A stretch of DNA of 64,000 bases from Escherichia phage BF17: the sequence record MW822008.1, one strand, 5' to 3'. Under the pieces are notes generated by a model. The model saw only the letters and a list, made by a program, of their open reading frames with translations. It was not told where the DNA came from and did no database searches. The number at the start of each line of letters is the position of its first letter. Position 1 is the first letter of the stretch. Below, piece after piece: positions 4,803-56,580 of the stretch. A program made the translations under genes and the position numbers.

Positions 4803-4865
4803 GAGACAAACAAAGCATTGATGATACAATGTTGCATGACAAAGAGACATTAAAAAGGAATTCAA

Positions 4866-6830
4866 ATGGCTAAGAAAGAAAGTGCTGTTCTTCAGGAACA
4901 TGATGTACAACGTCTAAACGATTATCAACATGCTCGCTTACGTACTGAGATGTATCTGGGTTCACGTTCTGTTCACGAAAGTCAAGTACTGATCTTTGGT
5001 GAGTCTGGATATGAAGTTAAAAACGTTGAGTGGGTTCCTGCAATTCTAACTGCTACTCGTGAAATTATCGATAACAGCTTAGATGAATTTAAAAAAGCTG
5101 GAACAAAAGAGCCAGTACTCAAAGTTGATTTCAATGAAGAAGAGTTATCCTTTGAGATCAGTGATAATGGTCGTGGTATTCCAATTGACTATGTTCCTGA
5201 GTATCAGAAAAATCTATGTACAATGGTAATGACTGAAACTAAAACTGGTCGCAACTTTGATGACTCGAAGCGTGATGAAACAATCGGTCAGAATGGATTG
5301 GGTGGTTCAGTTGCAATGATTGTAAGTTCTAAAGCTGAACTTGAAATCCATCGCCAAGGTCGCCCGTATAAAACACAAAGTAGCAATGACGGATATGACG
5401 GTTTTTATAAGTTCAATCAGAAGTTCGAAGAAGGAACTATTATGTTTCCTGAACTTCATGTACATGAACCAACTATTCGTAAGGTTCAAGCAGATAAGAC
5501 TGGAACAACAATTCGCTTCACTCTGAGTTCTGAGGTATTTCCTAACCGTAAACTGCCAACCGAATTGTTATACAGTATTTTGAAAGAAATGTCTGCTGCT
5601 AACCCTACCTATAAGATTTTCCTTAACGGTAAGCGTATTGCAATTAAAGGAACTACTGAAAAAGCACTATTCAACGCATCTAAACTGATGCAATTGAACG
5701 TTAAAGATGAATCATTCAACTTTAACAGTACTTTCTACATTGTTCCTAATGCAGTATCGGGTATGAACAATAACTTCCATATGCATGGTTTGGTTAACAA
5801 TGCCCCAGCATTTGATGGTGGTACACATCTTGATACATTCAAGAAATTCTTCTCATTAGGAGTAGGAACTGCTCTAGAGAAAGAATCAAAGAAACGCAAG
5901 ATGAAACCTAACCGCTCTGATATTGAAGAAGGTCTGTTGATTTATAACGTAACAACGATGAAAGCACCATCATTCAACTCACAGATTAAATCAAAACTAA
6001 CCAACGAAAACGTTATTCGTCCAATTCAACAAGCGATGAATTCTGAATGGTTCGATGAATTAGTCAAGAAGAACAAAGAGTGGATTGATGAAATTTTTGA
6101 ACGCTGTGCTGCTCGTACCAACAAGAAAGATGCAGAAGAAGATCGCCGTCTAGCTAAAAAACTACTGAAAGGTAAAGTTGCAAAACTATTGGACAGTACA
6201 GGTACGGATCGTTCCAAATGCATCCTACTAATTGCTGAGGGTGATTCTGCTATTTCCAACATGGCGAGTGCTCGTGATCCTAAAGTTCATGGTATTCTAC
6301 CATTGCGTGGTAAAATTATGAACGTCAGTGGTAATGAGAAAACCAAAGAATTAATGGATTCAATGGCATTGCATGATATAATGGCGAGTATCAACCTGAT
6401 TCCTGGTGTAAAAGCGGAAAGAGCAGACCTTAACTATGGTAAGCTTTATATCTGTGCCGATGAAGATGAGGATGGAAAGAACATTGGTGCTTTAGTATGT
6501 AACTTCCTATACAAATTCTGGCCTGAACTATTCCAAGACCCAGAGAATCCATTTGTGTATATATTCAAAACACCATTCATCATTCTAGAGAAAGGTAAGG
6601 AATCCAAGTACTACTATGGTCATGATGTACATGAATACAACCCAGATGATTGGAAAGGTTGGAAAGCAACCCGTGCGAAAGGATTGGGTACGTTAGAAAA
6701 AGCAAACTTCCGTGATGCATTCACTAACAGTGTTACAGTAGCGATCACTGATGATGGACGTCTTGGTGAAACACTTGATTTGATTTTCAACAAGAAACGT
6801 GCAGATGATCGTAAGAACTGGATGGAATAA
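4866..6830 (+). CDS. 39: DNA topoisomerase II large subunit (GyrB-like ATPase plus Toprim; T4 gp39 and gp60 equivalent as a single ORF)
   Basis: GHKL box ISDNGRGIP; Toprim LLIAEGDSAISNMASARDPKVHGILPLRGKIMNV; ICADEDEDGKNIG. Confidence 0.85.
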   Translation: MAKKESAVLQEHDVQRLNDYQHARLRTEMYLGSRSVHESQVLIFGESGYEVKNVEWVPAILTATREIIDNSLDEFKKAGTKEPVLKVDFNEEELSFEISDNGRGIPIDYVPEYQKNLCTMVMTETKTGRNFDDSKRDETIGQNGLGGSVAMIVSSKAELEIHRQGRPYKTQSSNDGYDGFYKFNQKFEEGTIMFPELHVHEPTIRKVQADKTGTTIRFTLSSEVFPNRKLPTELLYSILKEMSAANPTYKIFLNGKRIAIKGTTEKALFNASKLMQLNVKDESFNFNSTFYIVPNAVSGMNNNFHMHGLVNNAPAFDGGTHLDTFKKFFSLGVGTALEKESKKRKMKPNRSDIEEGLLIYNVTTMKAPSFNSQIKSKLTNENVIRPIQQAMNSEWFDELVKKNKEWIDEIFERCAARTNKKDAEEDRRLAKKLLKGKVAKLLDSTGTDRSKCILLIAEGDSAISNMASARDPKVHGILPLRGKIMNVSGNEKTKELMDSMALHDIMASINLIPGVKAERADLNYGKLYICADEDEDGKNIGALVCNFLYKFWPELFQDPENPFVYIFKTPFIILEKGKESKYYYGHDVHEYNPDDWKGWKATRAKGLGTLEKANFRDAFTNSVTVAITDDGRLGETLDLIFNKKRADDRKNWME

Positions 6831-6864: not shown

Positions 6865-6880
6865 ACAAAGAGACAATGGA

Positions 6881-8335: not shown

Positions 8336-8343
8336 TATAAATA
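8336..8343 (+). promoter_or_regulatory. T4-type late promoter box TATAAATA
   Basis: Only perfect TATAAATA found by eye in the window, about 39 nt upstream of ATG 8382. Confidence 0.5.
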
Positions 8344-8381
8344 ATCTATAGATAATGGTAGCTTGGCTATGGAGAATTATA

Positions 8382-35530: not shown

Positions 35531-35651
35531 TTAATTTTTGGGACAACGCTGAAAAGCATGATATAATGTATATTATCGGCAGATGTAAAAATGCAAACCA
35601 TTCCTCAATGATGAGGGTTTTTCATAAAAAAGAAATAAAAGGGTATTAAAA

Positions 35652-39964: not shown

Positions 39965-40080
<116 letters not shown>

Positions 40081-40084
40081 AAAT

Positions 40085-40170
<86 letters not shown>

Positions 40171-40187
40171 CAATTAAAGGTTAAACC

Positions 40188-40348
<161 letters not shown>

Positions 40349-40352
<4 letters not shown>

Positions 40353-40509
40353 CACATGAAGAATGGATGAATGACATTAATTTTAGATATTCGGGTATCG
40401 GTAAATGGCTAAAGTATCATTGGGAATTCATTTCAGAGCCACATCTGTATGATAAACTTATCAACGATCCAGCATATGAAATGTACTTAATTGAACTACT
40501 GGTACGAAT

Positions 40510-40513
<4 letters not shown>
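40349..40513 (+). CDS. MTHEEWM mini-protein, copy 2 (54 aa)
   Basis: Own translation MTHEEWMNDINFRYSGIGKWLKYHWEFISEPHLYDKLINDPAYEMYLIELLVRI; ATGA overlaps. Confidence 0.55.
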
Positions 40514-40681
<168 letters not shown>

Positions 40682-40682
40682 G

Positions 40683-41136
<454 letters not shown>

Positions 41137-41164
41137 GTATCTTAACAACAGAAGGTATATTGAA

Positions 41165-41404
41165 ATGGGTAAGTATTTTGTGAGTTATAGTTATAATGTA
41201 TCACGAAAGATTCCACGTGGTGACGGAATGGGATGGTCTTATGATGCATATACTTTAAATGAGTCATGTATCATCGAATTACAAGAAAAAGACCTTGACA
41301 TTTTAAAAATCAAACAATATATTCTTGATGTTGAATTGGCACATCGTACTGATACCTATCCAGATGTAAACAACATCAGCATCTTAGTACTAACCAAAGT
41401 ATAA
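41165..41404 (+). CDS. hypothetical small protein
   Basis: ATG 41165 downstream of promoter; ORF-track 41135 start lies in promoter. Confidence 0.45.
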   Translation: MGKYFVSYSYNVSRKIPRGDGMGWSYDAYTLNESCIIELQEKDLDILKIKQYILDVELAHRTDTYPDVNNISILVLTKV

Positions 41405-41483
41405 GATAAAAAGAACTTTACTAAATAATTCCACTGGAGATTAATATGTTTAAAGATGAACGTCCAGATTTGTAAAAAGTACT

Positions 41484-41511
41484 TGAATAAATAATTCAGT
41501 ACTGATATAAT
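41484..41511 (+). promoter_or_regulatory. early promoter with CAGTACTG, heading an ORF-poor region
   Basis: ttgaat 41484-41489, cagtactg, extended -10 tgatataat 41503-41511. Confidence 0.5.
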
Positions 41512-41519
41512 GAATTCCA

Positions 41520-41870
41520 CAATCAGACGTATATGGTGTAAGTTACGTCGATGTAATCCAGAACAAGATCTCTGGTACTCTAGGAAGTGGTGAATGTTAA
41601 CCTAGACGGGTTTGATAATTGGACGATAGGCAATTATTACTTGACTAGCAGGTTTAAACTAGAGGTGACCGTCCTTCACCAAACTGGAAAACCGGATGGA
41701 CTTTTATTTAAAAGGGTAAGGCGTGGAAATATGTTTACAGAAGTTGCTTTTAGTAGCCTGTACGCCCCACGTCAAGGTAGTCGAAAGGTAAGTTAAAACG
41801 GGTGGTTATAAAGCTGAATTAACAGCGGCGTTTAAAAGCGTCACCATCCATTTTTTTTTAATTAAAGTTG
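41520..41870 (+). ncRNA. candidate structured non-coding RNA (unclassified)
   Basis: About 350 nt after a promoter with no ATG-initiated ORF of 60 aa or more and no RBS; ends near a T8 run. Confidence 0.3.
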
Positions 41871-41875
41871 GTGAT

Positions 41876-42685
<810 letters not shown>

Positions 42686-42709
42686 ACGAAATTACAATAG
42701 GAAATTAAA

Positions 42710-42895
42710 ATGCAACTTTTAATTCTTTCAATATTGTATATTATTATAATGGTTCCGATATCAATACGTTTAATTACAGTTGAACGATTTTTATCGAAAC
42801 ATGGAAATAGATCTATGATCTTTGTACCAATCGGGTTGATATTGTTTGGTATATTTTCATTTATAATGGGAATTAACGCTACATTCATTTCATAG
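42710..42895 (+). CDS. small membrane protein
   Basis: Two TM helices; RBS aggaaa. Confidence 0.45.
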   Translation: MQLLILSILYIIIMVPISIRLITVERFLSKHGNRSMIFVPIGLILFGIFSFIMGINATFIS

Positions 42896-42904
42896 GAAAC
42901 AAAT

Positions 42905-43435
<531 letters not shown>

Positions 43436-43480
43436 GATTCCCGATTCAGTAGCTTATAAAGCAGTTCCGTGTGTGCCTAT

Positions 43481-43533
<53 letters not shown>

Positions 43534-43534
43534 T

Positions 43535-43572
<38 letters not shown>

Positions 43573-43591
43573 AGAGGTACTTCGAGTATGC

Positions 43592-43658
<67 letters not shown>

Positions 43659-43733
43659 TAATTGACATATCATTGAATGGGGTGTATTATGGTTCAAGAA
43701 GAAAACTGGGGTTTTTAACCTAACGAGGTCATT

Positions 43734-43876
<143 letters not shown>

Positions 43877-43917
43877 AATGCGAAAGAGTATAGAGACTTG
43901 TTGGTTATCTTACTTCT

Positions 43918-44000
<83 letters not shown>

Positions 44001-44003
44001 TCA

Positions 44004-44076
<73 letters not shown>

Positions 44077-44093
44077 CAAAATAAAGGTACACT

Positions 44094-53734: not shown

Positions 53735-53808
53735 AAGTATTTGACATAACAAATAATATGGAGTACAATGTGCTCCTAATTTAATTATCAGCTAAAAAGG
53801 AAAACATT

Positions 53809-54069
53809 ATGAAATCTATTCTCGTTGCAGTTAACCAGGTTGCTTCCCCATCTTTTAACTTCAAACAAGTTGTTGCTGATAATCTGAAGAAGATCTGTCC
53901 AAACGCTGAATTGACTTTCTGTGTGTTTGATTCAGAAAAAGTAACTAAAGTTGATCTAAACTATCTTTTGAACGAAGTACAAAGTATTTCTGGTGAAAGT
54001 AACTTAAAAGTTCTTCATGAGATTGCAGAAGATTATGATGCCACTCTAGTAATTTCGGAGAAATTCTAA
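53809..54069 (+). CDS. hypothetical protein
   Basis: ORF track. Confidence 0.5.
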   Translation: MKSILVAVNQVASPSFNFKQVVADNLKKICPNAELTFCVFDSEKVTKVDLNYLLNEVQSISGESNLKVLHEIAEDYDATLVISEKF

Positions 54070-54074
54070 ATCAA

Positions 54075-54494
54075 ATGATTACATTCATTCAGTACTTAAT
54101 CATTAAATTTTTTGGCTATTATACGATTGAAGGCAAAGCTACACTTGCACATAAAATCTTCGTAGCATTATGTACTGGTGATTACCCTGTATTGAATAAG
54201 TACTGTAAATCTCAAGCATGTATTGATATAATGGCACTTCGCATCTATGAGTGCCGTTCAAATAGATACAATTTTTTCCAGTACAGATATGATAAAGATA
54301 ATTTTGATAGCATTAAAATGCTAAAGAATTTATGTAATAATAAAAAGAATATGCATATATCTGAATTTGTTGCATTGTATTTTTATTTAAAAAGTTCATT
54401 ATACATGAATACACTTCAACGCTTCGATACTAGAATTAATGTATTCAACGATAAAGAATTTTATATCTATGATAAATTTTTAGATAAGGTTTAA
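54075..54494 (+). CDS. hypothetical protein
   Basis: ORF track. Confidence 0.45.
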   Translation: MITFIQYLIIKFFGYYTIEGKATLAHKIFVALCTGDYPVLNKYCKSQACIDIMALRIYECRSNRYNFFQYRYDKDNFDSIKMLKNLCNNKKNMHISEFVALYFYLKSSLYMNTLQRFDTRINVFNDKEFYIYDKFLDKV

Positions 54495-54495
54495 T

Positions 54496-54993
54496 ATGAC
54501 GACTGTTTATATTGATAAACGCTTGGGAGTATTACTTACTGATTCAAAAGTGACATCAACTGAGCAACGTTCATTTTTGAACCTATTCCCGTTGAAGCCA
54601 AAACTTAGTTATGGTGTAGTTTCACAAAAAACATTGTATGTACACGACCGACTGTTTAGTGCTTGCGGTGAAGTTAGTGAAATTAACAAAGTACTGAGAT
54701 ACTTGATTTCACAAGAGACTGTGATACCAGACCGCAAGGCGAGTTGTCACTGTGTTCTTGTGTCAAAAGATTACATCATTCACTTAATCGTTAATAAGGG
54801 TAAGTTTACCAAGAAGATTGATTATCTCCATAATGATTATACATTCTTTATGGGTAGTGGTGGTGAATACATGCTTGATGCAGCAGTACATGAAGAGTAT
54901 AATACTCTTCTTGATAAGGTATTTGATACCTTCATGGATGTTCATAACCATGATATCTATACCGATGATAATATTAATGTATACCGTTTTTGA
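54496..54993 (+). CDS. hypothetical protein
   Basis: ORF track. Confidence 0.5.
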   Translation: MTTVYIDKRLGVLLTDSKVTSTEQRSFLNLFPLKPKLSYGVVSQKTLYVHDRLFSACGEVSEINKVLRYLISQETVIPDRKASCHCVLVSKDYIIHLIVNKGKFTKKIDYLHNDYTFFMGSGGEYMLDAAVHEEYNTLLDKVFDTFMDVHNHDIYTDDNINVYRF

Positions 54994-55015
54994 TTTCATT
55001 CATTAGGAGAAGTAA

Positions 55016-55984
55016 GTGAAAAAGCTTGATTTAAATGCAATTTCTGAAGAAGTACTGGATGAGTGTTTTGCTAGTGAAGAAGTCAACGTATTAGAGGCTC
55101 TTGATTCCGTCGAAGAAGAAGAAGAACATGACGGTCACAAGTTTGAGAAACCAAAAACAGGTATCAGCTTAACTCGCCCTAAAGGGATAACGAATGAAAT
55201 GCTCATCCAAGCAGTGCGTGATGGTATTGACGTTGAAAAGAACATTGACCTTTTGGTTCGCTACAACTATCCAATGGTAGTAAGTGTTGCACGTAAGTGT
55301 ACATGTTTTATCCCATTTGAAGATAAGATTTCTTATGGTGTTGAAGGTTTAATGCGAGCAATTCATACGTTCGACACTACCAAAAATGTTAAGTTCATTA
55401 CATATGCAACAACAACTGTGTACATGACAATCTATAACGAAAGTGCAGATGCTAATTATCTAGTGCATTTCCCACGTTATATGAGTGTTAATAACATTTA
55501 TGTGAAACGTTGTGTAGAAGAGTATCAAAGGAAACATGGTAAATACCCAACTCCTGAGATGGTGTCAAAAGAGACTGGTATTGAGATTCAACACGTTAAG
55601 AATTGTCTAACTTACAATAACACTTATGTAGCATTGAATATGAAAATGAGTAATGATTCAGAAAGTACATTATCTGACATTGTTACTTCAGTTGAACCTG
55701 ATTACAACTTAGGCGTAGAAACTGTCAGTACCCCACTGGTACAAAGTATTGCAGAAATGATGAGTAACCTATCTGCCAAAGACCGTGAATTGATTGAACG
55801 TGTACATGGTATTGGTTCTTATTCTGAACCAGAAACGCTACGAGAAATCATTGAGAGTGGTTTTGAAGATGAGAAGGGTAAGGTCATGACTGCTCGTTCT
55901 TCATTGCACCGCAAGTACTCTGAAGCAATGGAACGTCTTCGTAAGATGGTGAAGACGCAAGGTTACGAGTTCGAAGATTTTTAA
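55016..55984 (+). CDS. sigma-70 family RNA polymerase sigma factor (regions 2, 3, 4)
   Basis: Region 2 LLVRYNYPMVVSVARK...YGVEGLMRAIHTFD...KFITYATTTV; region 4-like C-terminus; GTG start with RBS aggaga. Confidence 0.7.
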   Translation: MKKLDLNAISEEVLDECFASEEVNVLEALDSVEEEEEHDGHKFEKPKTGISLTRPKGITNEMLIQAVRDGIDVEKNIDLLVRYNYPMVVSVARKCTCFIPFEDKISYGVEGLMRAIHTFDTTKNVKFITYATTTVYMTIYNESADANYLVHFPRYMSVNNIYVKRCVEEYQRKHGKYPTPEMVSKETGIEIQHVKNCLTYNNTYVALNMKMSNDSESTLSDIVTSVEPDYNLGVETVSTPLVQSIAEMMSNLSAKDRELIERVHGIGSYSEPETLREIIESGFEDEKGKVMTARSSLHRKYSEAMERLRKMVKTQGYEFEDF

Positions 55985-55991
55985 GATTAAA

Positions 55992-56017
55992 GGGTTGACT
56001 TCGGTCAGCCTTTTTTT
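55992..56017 (+). terminator. rho-independent terminator
   Basis: gggttgacttcggtcagcc plus TTTTTTT. Confidence 0.7.
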
Positions 56018-56551
56018 ATGGGACAAATTTATTAATGGTGATACAATGATCTATGTACAATCACAATGACAGTACTGGTACTGACAATCTTCCCCTACTT
56101 CACTTGAAAATGTAAAGGATAGATGAGCTTTTCATTGTAGCGAACAGCAAAAGAAACCCGTTAGATGTGGGCATAGTTTGAACCCCTCACGGCAATGCGG
56201 CTGTATAAAGAACCACGTTAGGATAGCTGGTGGTTCCTTGATAGACATATAAGGATAACACCTTACGAATTATCTAAGGGAGAGTTATCGAATTTTGTAC
56301 AGGAAAGTTGCGTCCAAAATTTGAGTACTCACATTAAGTATTTGATTGCATAGATACTTAATGAAGATACACTATGTTTAAAAGTGTAGACCGTCATATG
56401 AAACTGAAGTAGAGAGAAACAGGATGACCCGCTTTCGCACTCATTATGAGTAATCTTCAATGCAATAGCTCTGATACCATCAGCGTCAAATTCCCCTCCA
56501 TGCGGGGGGAAGAAAAATCCCTTCCTCAAATCCCGTCAATATTAAAAGTCC

Positions 56552-56580
56552 TTGACAGTTATGATTCATTCGCGTAGAAT
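56552..56580 (+). promoter_or_regulatory. sigma70-like promoter
   Basis: ttgaca 56552-56557, 17-nt spacer, tagaat 56575-56580. Confidence 0.55.

Follow-up and report, generated by a model that had tools for sequence, protein, structure and literature searches.

Sigma factors resembling RpoD have been annotated in several RaK2-like or group 2 jumbo phages, among them fEgEco12 (g519), 121Q (gp167), CBB (CBB_513) and Sharanji (WNN14470), and these proteins form one family, PHROG 351. No phage RNA polymerase is found in this group (Iyer et al., 2021), and a sigma factor of this type has been cited as a hallmark of it. In the paper on CBB the protein CBB_513 was annotated with regions 2-4 and assigned to the early region of the genome, and the same sigma is mentioned in the fEgEco12 and Sharanji papers. 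The subject of the present analysis is a member of this family that is encoded in a stretch of 64,000 nucleotides (nt) from Escherichia phage BF17 (sequence record MW822008.1), referred to here as the window. The relatives, with identities between orthologues that run from 99% down to 33%, are likewise around 320 residues long and encoded within a run of small early genes, and they show no essential difference from the window sigma. The identification is already known: near-identical genomes carry the gene under this annotation, and published papers have dealt with it. By itself it adds nothing; what is new is a testable assignment of the sigma to a statistically clean promoter class that had previously been unassigned. 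No paper assigning a promoter class to the RpoD-like sigmas of RaK2-like or group 2 jumbo phages was found in the literature.

The reading proposed here, to which we give a little more than an even chance on the strength of sequence comparison, is that the phage sigma would switch the host RNA polymerase from the early genes to the promoters of replication genes (class 2, described below) within a three-step cascade. The same logic is established for the Bacillus phage SPO1 (gp28 and gp33/34), in which the host sigma serves the early genes, a phage sigma the middle genes and another the late genes. The SPO1 cascade is also summarised in a literature abstract. Between SPO1 and the window phage there is no detectable close homology, and the late step of the cascade proposed here would fall to a sigma of the T4 gp55 type. 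T4 itself appropriates the host sigma by means of MotA and AsiA, and the regulon so controlled is of the same type (replication and recombination), with a sigma-70-like -10 and a phage-specific box that replaces the -35. The present phages differ from T4 in that no MotA or AsiA homologue was found, in that a complete extra sigma is encoded and in that the box stands at -35 with a fixed spacer of 16-17 nt. T4 gp55 resembles the window sigma in being a phage-encoded member of the sigma family that uses, as is predicted for the window sigma, the host core polymerase; proteins of the gp55 type, however, are without region 4, and in these phages the gp55-like protein is encoded by another gene, outside the window.

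The DNA of the window is 96-98% identical to that of the 350-385 kb jumbo coliphages Ecwhy_1, WPEC3, fEgEco12 and TH47 (genus Asteriusvirus) and about 84% identical to that of 121Q and PBECO4. It belongs to an Asteriusvirus or RaK2-like jumbo phage of approximately 350-385 kb, which has only the replication and late-transcription modules in common with T4. The T4-like gene context proposed in an initial annotation of the window, which was made from the sequence alone, therefore holds for those modules and not for the genome. In fEgEco12 the sigma gene is g519, 'RNA polymerase sigma factor', and belongs to an extended series of small genes on the + strand, downstream of the topoisomerase II, clamp-loader and tRNA genes. 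Identity of the protein is 99% with Ecwhy_1 and fEgEco12, 59% with 121Q and 33-39% with the RaK2-like, CBB, Yersinia and Xanthomonas phage proteins. The fEgEco12 paper lists Gp519 as fully absent from Ecwhy_1; by tblastn, Ecwhy_1 carries the sigma at 99.4% identity under the record label 'similar to RNA polymerase sigma factor', and the reported absence looks like an annotation artefact.

The gene and the parts of its product are located as follows.

55016..55984, + strand: coding sequence of the sigma factor, an RpoD/RpoS-like sigma of group 2 jumbo phages, 322 amino acids (open reading frame, profile and structure matches)
55005..55009, + strand: Shine-Dalgarno sequence AGGAG (from the sequence)
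55016..55168, + strand: acidic N-terminal region, residues 1-51, of which the first 18 or so (MKKLDLNAISEEVLDECF) are conserved in all lineages (composition, model, alignment)
55253..55441, + strand: region 2, residues 80-142 (Pfam and alignment)
55502..55690, + strand: region 3, residues 163-225 (Pfam), with region 3.0 (residues 154-158) just upstream
55721..55963, + strand: region 4, residues 236-316, comprising 4.1 and 4.2 with the helix-turn-helix (C-terminal search, profile, model)
55850..55876, + strand: insertion IESGFEDEK, residues 279-287 (alignment)
55889..55957, + strand: recognition helix, residues 292-314, TARSSLHRKY... (alignment)

The coding sequence, stop codon included, begins with GTG, and the Shine-Dalgarno sequence is placed 6 nt 5' of this codon. 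The start position and the first residues, MKKLDL, are shared by the orthologues in the alignment. The open reading frame is where the initial annotation had placed it, and the four peptide strings quoted there all occur in the translation. Regions 2 and 3, which had been read from those strings, are matched above the Pfam gathering scores by Sigma70_r2 (residues 80-142, E=2.6e-9, 37.2 bits against a cut-off of 24) and Sigma70_r3 (residues 163-225, E=1.3e-11, 44.9 bits against a cut-off of 25.3). Among NCBIfam models RpoD_Cterm is matched at 2.7e-27 and RpoS aligns over residues 80-320, with scores that are far under the equivalog cut-offs (96 versus 354 bits). The match to PHROG 351, 'RNA polymerase sigma factor', has E=5e-48 and establishes membership of the jumbo-phage sigma family by orthology; a gp55-like gene is present in the relatives. 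A sequence search of the PDB returned 68 sigma-factor sequences at E<=0.01, the best being Mycobacterium tuberculosis (Mtb) SigB, group 1 SigA and Escherichia coli RpoS. In an AlphaFold (AF2) model the domains have pLDDT values of about 78-89, and Foldseek places this model closest to E. coli sigma-S in initiation complexes (2.5e-11), with group 1 sigmas next; the alignments span 262-288 columns. The sequence and profile matches put the relationship to the sigma family far beyond chance, and it is confirmed that the product is a genuine sigma factor of the sigma-70 family and has regions 2, 3 and 4.

Region 4 is present but divergent, with a 9-residue insertion. The phage sigma alone is not matched by Pfam Sigma70_r4. 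When the C-terminal 87 residues were searched by themselves they matched region 4 of RpoS (6fi7_A, E=0.0065), the top six matches all being RpoS, and a profile of the C-terminal domain of the family matched region 4 at E=0.0011. Sigma70_r4 is passed by four of ten aligned members, two of them cellular sigmas and two phage orthologues. In the AlphaFold model the helices of this region (residues 234-250, 254-264, 275-280 and 294-314) have pLDDT values of 82-89. The C-terminal helix-turn-helix that had been read from the sequence was thus recovered by the C-terminal search, the family profile, the orthologues and the model. Every phage lineage carries the insertion, IESGFEDEK, within the turn of the helix-turn-helix of region 4.2, and cellular sigmas lack it. 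With region 4 present, the protein is not a late sigma of the gp55 type, as had been argued from its size and its region 4. When the gp55-like protein CBB_244 was used as a query it found no match in the window, and it matched a separate gene of TH47 (75% identity) as well as 87 phage records.

The N-terminal part of the protein is less complete than the term 'full-length' of the initial annotation implied. Neither Pfam Sigma70_r1_1 nor Sigma70_r1_2 matches the phage sigma, whereas the cellular sequences of the same alignment carry both; of region 1.2 only the second half aligns and the non-conserved region is absent. Residues 1-51 contain 16 D/E against 5 K/R, which bears out the acidic region noted earlier, and are predicted to be disordered and modelled at low confidence. 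The protein consists of the sigma-2, sigma-3 and sigma-4 domains, part of region 1.2 and an acidic N-terminal tail, so that regions 2-4 are all there and the protein is not strictly full-length. The architecture of sigma-2, sigma-3 and sigma-4 domains and the pocket for the base A-11 are shared with E. coli sigma-S (RpoS) and the group 1 sigmas (RpoD/SigA), which are also the best matches in sequence and structure; it is in lacking region 1.1 and a full region 1.2, in having its contact residues replaced and in the insertion in region 4.2 that the phage sigma differs from them.

The extreme N-terminus (residues 1-18, 55016-55069) keeps the pattern MKKL[DN]L..I..E[VI]LDECF across lineages whose sigmas are otherwise 33-45% identical, and this conservation suggests a partner-binding or autoinhibitory element. 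An acidic N-terminus that is conserved in all lineages, together with a fold and a C-terminal tail that resemble those of sigma-S, would also suit a protein that acts mainly as a competitor or decoy, occupying the host core RNA polymerase or a host regulator of sigma-S or sigma-70, shutting off host transcription and having no promoters of its own. We regard this as improbable, since both the recognition helix and the insertion in the helix-turn-helix are kept within lineages and a promoter box varies along with the helix (see below), which would not be expected of a protein that does not read DNA.

The gene is the last of an operon of four, with members at 53809-54069, 54075-54494, 54496-54993 and 55016-55984 that are separated by gaps of 5, 1 and 22 nt. 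The operon is bounded by the following elements.

53741..53769, + strand: host sigma-70-type promoter TTGACA-17-TACAAT at the head of the operon of four genes of which the sigma gene is the last (consensus match; its use is inferred)
55989..56017, + strand: intrinsic terminator closing the operon, GGGUUGAC-UUCG-GUCAGCC followed by U7 (-13.9 kcal/mol, z = -5.55)

The CBB orthologue, CBB_513, is also found in the early region and has an RpoD-like promoter, Porf_510, in front of it. Taken with the layout of the operon, the promoter at its head makes early transcription of the sigma gene by the host sigma-70 the natural reading.

The residues with which the phage sigma would read promoters were examined by way of alignments with cellular RpoD, from which the corresponding positions of E. 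coli sigma-70 were read. The roles of the sigma-70 residues named here, including those of region 2.2 in core binding, are well established. Equivalents of N383, D403, G408, F419, K426 and Y430 are kept, as is the GLMRA motif, and the A-11 pocket (F419, K426, Y430) is therefore retained. Changes are found in the region that contacts the -10 (W433 to T, W434 to T, Q437 to M, T440 to Y and R441 to N), in region 3.0, which contacts the extended -10 (V454 to R, H455 to Y and E458 to V), and in the region that contacts the -35 (E585 to S, R586 to S, R588 to H and Q589 to R), where the equivalent of R584 is the only one kept. The whole set of promoter contacts typical of group 1 and group 2 sigmas (W433, W434, Q437, T440, H455, E458, E585, R586, R588 and Q589) is thus replaced. 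As judged from the alignment, the replacements have the character of an alternative sigma with a promoter specificity of its own and, since the DNA-reading residues differ from those of sigma-70, a phage-specific class of promoters would be expected.

Promoter classes were sought in the whole genome of TH47, a relative 96% identical to the window, in which genes were called and 238 upstream regions analysed. Three classes were found: a TTGACA type, a class with a GACA box (class 2) and a T4-late-like ATAAATA class. Sites with at least 11 of 12 matches to TTGACA-N16-18-TATAAT number 38 on the + strand of the window and 0 on the - strand; in TH47 there are 47 sense sites and 1 antisense, concentrated in the early regions and often of the form ..agtacTGTATAAT. 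The initial annotation had suggested as targets of the sigma either these near-consensus promoters or a distinct class. The distinct class is the better candidate, and the near-consensus TTGACA-17-TATAAT suggestion is probably wrong. The abundance of the TTGACA class on the coding strand and the similarity of the phage sigma to group 1 and group 2 sigmas would be in keeping with a factor that drives these promoters and replaces or reinforces the host sigma-70. This is nevertheless the least probable of the explanations considered, because the equivalents of E585, R586, R588, Q589, W433, W434, Q437 and T440 are all replaced, because the class is identical in lineages whose sigmas have different helices, and because such promoters must fire before any phage protein is made and the sigma gene itself lies behind one.

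Class 2 has the form tG(G/A)GACAa - 16 nt - TATAAT with an extended -10, gTGATATAAT, and is a promoter class not previously described for this lineage. The pattern [GA]GACA-N12-14-TGnTAYAAT occurs in TH47 at 25 sense sites and 0 antisense, where 0.2 are expected; the spacer is 16 nt in 22 of the 25 and position -13 is A in 20 of them. The TGn element accompanies 25 of 31 class 2 boxes and 6 of 30 TTGACA sites (p = 2.5e-6). In the window the pattern GACA...TGNTAYAAT is matched seven times against 0.19 expected. The class 2 promoters located in the window, each a putative target of the phage sigma, are these.

56020..56047, + strand: GGGACA-16-TACAAT with a TGA extended -10, directly after the terminator of the sigma operon (assignment inferred)
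35540..35567, + strand: GGGACA...TGATATAAT (pattern match)
42062..42090, + strand: aGGACA...TGATATAAT, 5' of the tRNA-Ser(gct) gene at 42279 (pattern match)
4803..4830, + strand: GAGACA...TGATACAAT, 5' of the gene for the large subunit of topoisomerase II (4866-6830) (pattern match)

In TH47, class 2 promoters precede genes for a gp32-like single-stranded DNA-binding protein (SSB), a Dda/PIF1-like helicase, a Toprim (primase-like) protein, a PD-(D/E)XK nuclease, ClpP and topoisomerase II, and one of them precedes the gene for the gp55-like late sigma. Class 2 emerged only through dyad counting and anchoring on extended -10 sites: visual inspection of 111 upstream segments that combine a good -10 with a poor match to the sigma-70 -35 brought out no single obvious alternative -35. 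The k-mer and dyad searches of the 238 upstream regions yielded no further bipartite motif as an alternative target of the phage sigma. The -35 of the type reported in CBB and GAP32, TGAAACG, was tried in the window and rejected as unused in this lineage, since it gave 16 matches against 8.7 expected and one alone had a promoter-like context. The T4-late-like ATAAATA was observed 27 times upstream of TH47 genes, where 1.2 are expected. The only window copy of TATAAATA, at 8336-8343 (about 6 copies are expected), is upstream of a virion structural gene at 8355, and across TH47 this sequence is under-represented, with 9 copies on the coding strand against around 31 expected. Such scarcity fits avoidance of T4-type late promoters outside their proper places.

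The comparison was extended to four lineages, for which the unannotated RaK2-like genome (OU509535) was analysed in the same way as TH47, the Munch lineage was represented by 100 kb of PHA46 and the CBB class was taken from a published table (17 of 18 sequences). The class 2 box, the number of sites and the helix at sigma-70 positions 584-591 are given below for each.

Window, TH47 and 121Q: box G(G/A)GACA; 25 sense sites and 0 antisense; helix RSS[LI]HRKY
Munch and PHA46: box GGGACA, in the form cTTGGGACAAA...TGTGATATAAT; 15 sense and 0 antisense in 100 kb; helix RTSLHRCY
CBB, XbC2 and Yen9-04: box TG(A/G)AAC(G); 17 published sequences; helix KATLSRRY
RaK2-like genome: box TGAACA, in the form tTGAACAaa...TGATATAAT; 15 sense and 0 antisense; helix RGTLHYKF

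The CBB sequences are those listed as 'promoter 1' in the CBB paper, TG(A/G)AAC(G)-N13-TGgTATAAT, and they include the promoter of the gp55-like gene of CBB. Reciprocal counts separate the boxes, the TH47 type occurring 25 times in TH47 and once in the RaK2-like genome and the RaK2 type once and 15 times respectively; the host-type TTGACA class is abundant in both genomes. In the 100 kb of PHA46, the sigma of which is 99.7% identical to that of Munch, there are no boxes of the CBB or RaK2 type, and the class 2 sites lie upstream of genes for DNA polymerase, SSB, primase, exonucleases, topoisomerase II and the late sigma. The promoter of the orthologous gp55-like gene carries GGGACA in TH47, 121Q and Munch, GGAACG in CBB, XbC2 and Yen9-04, and TTGAAT in the RaK2-like genome. 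Overall the Munch sigma is nearer to that of CBB (58% versus 41%, regions 1.2-3.1), yet its helix and box match those of the window lineage. A second correspondence concerns position -13 of the class 2 promoters, where A stands in 46 of 55 from lineages with R or K at the equivalent of V454 and in only 3 of 17 from CBB, which has E (p = 1.2e-6, uncorrected for phylogeny). Between the window lineage and CBB the RpoD-like sigmas are 36% identical, whereas the gp55-like sigmas of TH47 and CBB are 75% identical, figures that fit a factor co-evolving with its own promoters.

Across the four lineages, then, the -35 box changes in step with the recognition helix of the phage sigma. From this it may be proposed, with the case for and against about evenly balanced, that the RpoD-like sigma is a dedicated middle sigma whose remodelled region 4.2, with its extra loop in the helix-turn-helix, would read a lineage-specific -35 box, box and helix having co-evolved. 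On the same even footing, the boxes so read would be G(G/A)GACA in Asteriusvirus and Munch, TGAACA in the RaK2-like phages and TG(A/G)AAC in CBB.

Several points weigh against the phage sigma as the factor that reads class 2. The covariation comes from four lineages that are phylogenetically non-independent and so cannot settle which factor is the reader, and another lineage-specific DNA-binding factor could give rise to the same pattern of boxes and helices. The RaK2-like box, TTGAACA, is near to a sigma-70 -35. The class 2 -10, TGnTATAAT, is invariant across lineages although the residues of the phage sigma that would contact the -10 and the extended -10 vary. In region 2.2 three of the five classical core-binding residues (the equivalents of Q406, E407 and N409) are altered. 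The literature on these sigmas and on Asteriusvirus promoters consists of annotations and predictions, and no reports of RNA polymerase binding, timing or mapped start sites were found in it. Lastly, TGnTATAAT is the optimum for the host sigma-70 and extended -10 promoters can be used without a -35, so that the host enzyme could read class 2 unaided.

It is possible, though a good deal less likely than the reading favoured here, that class 2 is indeed read by the host sigma-70 through the extended -10, alone or with some phage activator at the box, after the manner of MotA and AsiA in T4, and that the phage sigma serves other promoters. The constancy of the sigma-70 optimum TGnTATAAT between lineages would be accounted for, as would the lack in the phage sigma of equivalents of W433, W434, H455 and E458; extended -10 promoters, moreover, work without a -35 and are resistant to AsiA. 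As to an activator, searches by tblastn with T4 MotA found no homologue in TH47, the RaK2-like genome or the window, and the sole candidate for AsiA, a match at E=0.05 in a protein of 188 amino acids, was rejected since it has no match to Pfam AsiA and belongs to a PHROG of unknown function. Sigma-70 alone would leave unexplained a strongly conserved box at a fixed spacing of 16-17 nt. Both the box and the base at -13 track residues of the phage sigma, and the k-mer and dyad searches offered no other promoters for that sigma to serve. Under the reading favoured here the phage sigma, and not another factor, would be the reader of class 2. In the RaK2-like genome (OU509535, 332468-335126) there is a subset of four near-identical class 2 promoters in which the box lies inside the palindrome TTGAACAAAAAGTTCAA, and this hints at an additional, dimeric regulator at those sites.

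Under the proposed cascade, the host sigma-70 holoenzyme would after infection transcribe the sigma gene as the last of the four early genes between the promoter at 53741 and the terminator at 55989-56017. The phage sigma is predicted to bind the host core RNA polymerase by way of the conserved surfaces of regions 2.1/2.2, 3.2 and 4.1, and its altered DNA-reading residues would send the polymerase to the phage-specific 'middle' class tG(G/A)GACAa - 16 nt - TATAAT with its extended -10 gTGATATAAT. Genes for replication and recombination, encoding the gp32-like SSB, the Dda-like helicase, the primase-like protein, topoisomerase II, nucleases and ClpP, would be driven in this way. So too would the gene for the gp55-like late sigma, which may then serve late promoters of the TATAAATA type, giving a succession from host sigma-70 to the phage RpoD-like sigma to the gp55-like sigma.

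Other features of the locus were recorded. None of the neighbouring open reading frames of the operon (53809, 54075 and 54496) contains an informative Pfam domain. The one directly 5' of the sigma gene, 54496-54993, is called 'ATP-dependent protease subunit HslV' in the fEgEco12 annotation, a label that is based on a weak PHROG match (2.8e-6) alone and has no Pfam match behind it. The hairpin of the terminator, GGTTGAC-TTCG-GTCAGCC with a T-run, recurs in the genome (window 55993-56006; TH47, in reverse-complement coordinates, 221152, 226792 and 229627), and in several places its TTGACT doubles as a promoter -35, with TATAAT 18 nt further downstream, making a compact terminator-promoter unit. 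The class 2 promoter at 56020-56047 is followed by some 500 nt (56048-56550) without an open reading frame of at least 45 amino acids, after which, at 56552, comes another promoter of the sigma-70 type. RNA from this stretch folds modestly better than shuffled sequences (z = -2.57), and Rfam, searched with the 660 bp free of open reading frames after the sigma gene, gave no family at E<=1 except for a sub-threshold small RNA match that overlaps the terminator. In TH47 the counterpart of the class 2 promoter leads into an open reading frame of 210 amino acids and not into a stretch without one.

Elsewhere in the window there are six tRNA genes at 39991-44077 (Ser-tga, Ser-gct, Met, Asn and two Thr-tgt), in agreement with the description of fEgEco12. 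The decamer CAAAGAGACA occurs in the window only twice, at 4840-4849 and 6866-6875, each copy about 15-25 nt upstream of the start codon of the gene for one subunit of topoisomerase II, and it may be a shared translational operator. Of all 4096 hexamers the most frequent is the palindrome AGTACT, with 167 copies in the window against about 18 expected, 917 in TH47 against about 100, and 945 in the RaK2-like genome against about 83, or approximately 2.6 per kb. It is found in all three reading frames and between genes, with flanks that favour CAGTACTG, and is densest in the early regions, often beside the -35 or -10 of early promoters. No mention of AGTACT in these phages was found in the literature. 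The excess looks like the result of selection at the DNA level for a binding or modification site.

If the assignment of class 2 to the phage sigma were confirmed, it would explain how the timing of middle genes is achieved without MotA and AsiA in jumbo phages that have no RNA polymerase of their own. If true, it would mean that the lineages of these phages hold a natural set of orthogonal sigma/promoter pairs, all working on enterobacterial core RNA polymerase, and on confirmation several such pairs for the E. coli core polymerase would become available for use in synthetic biology.

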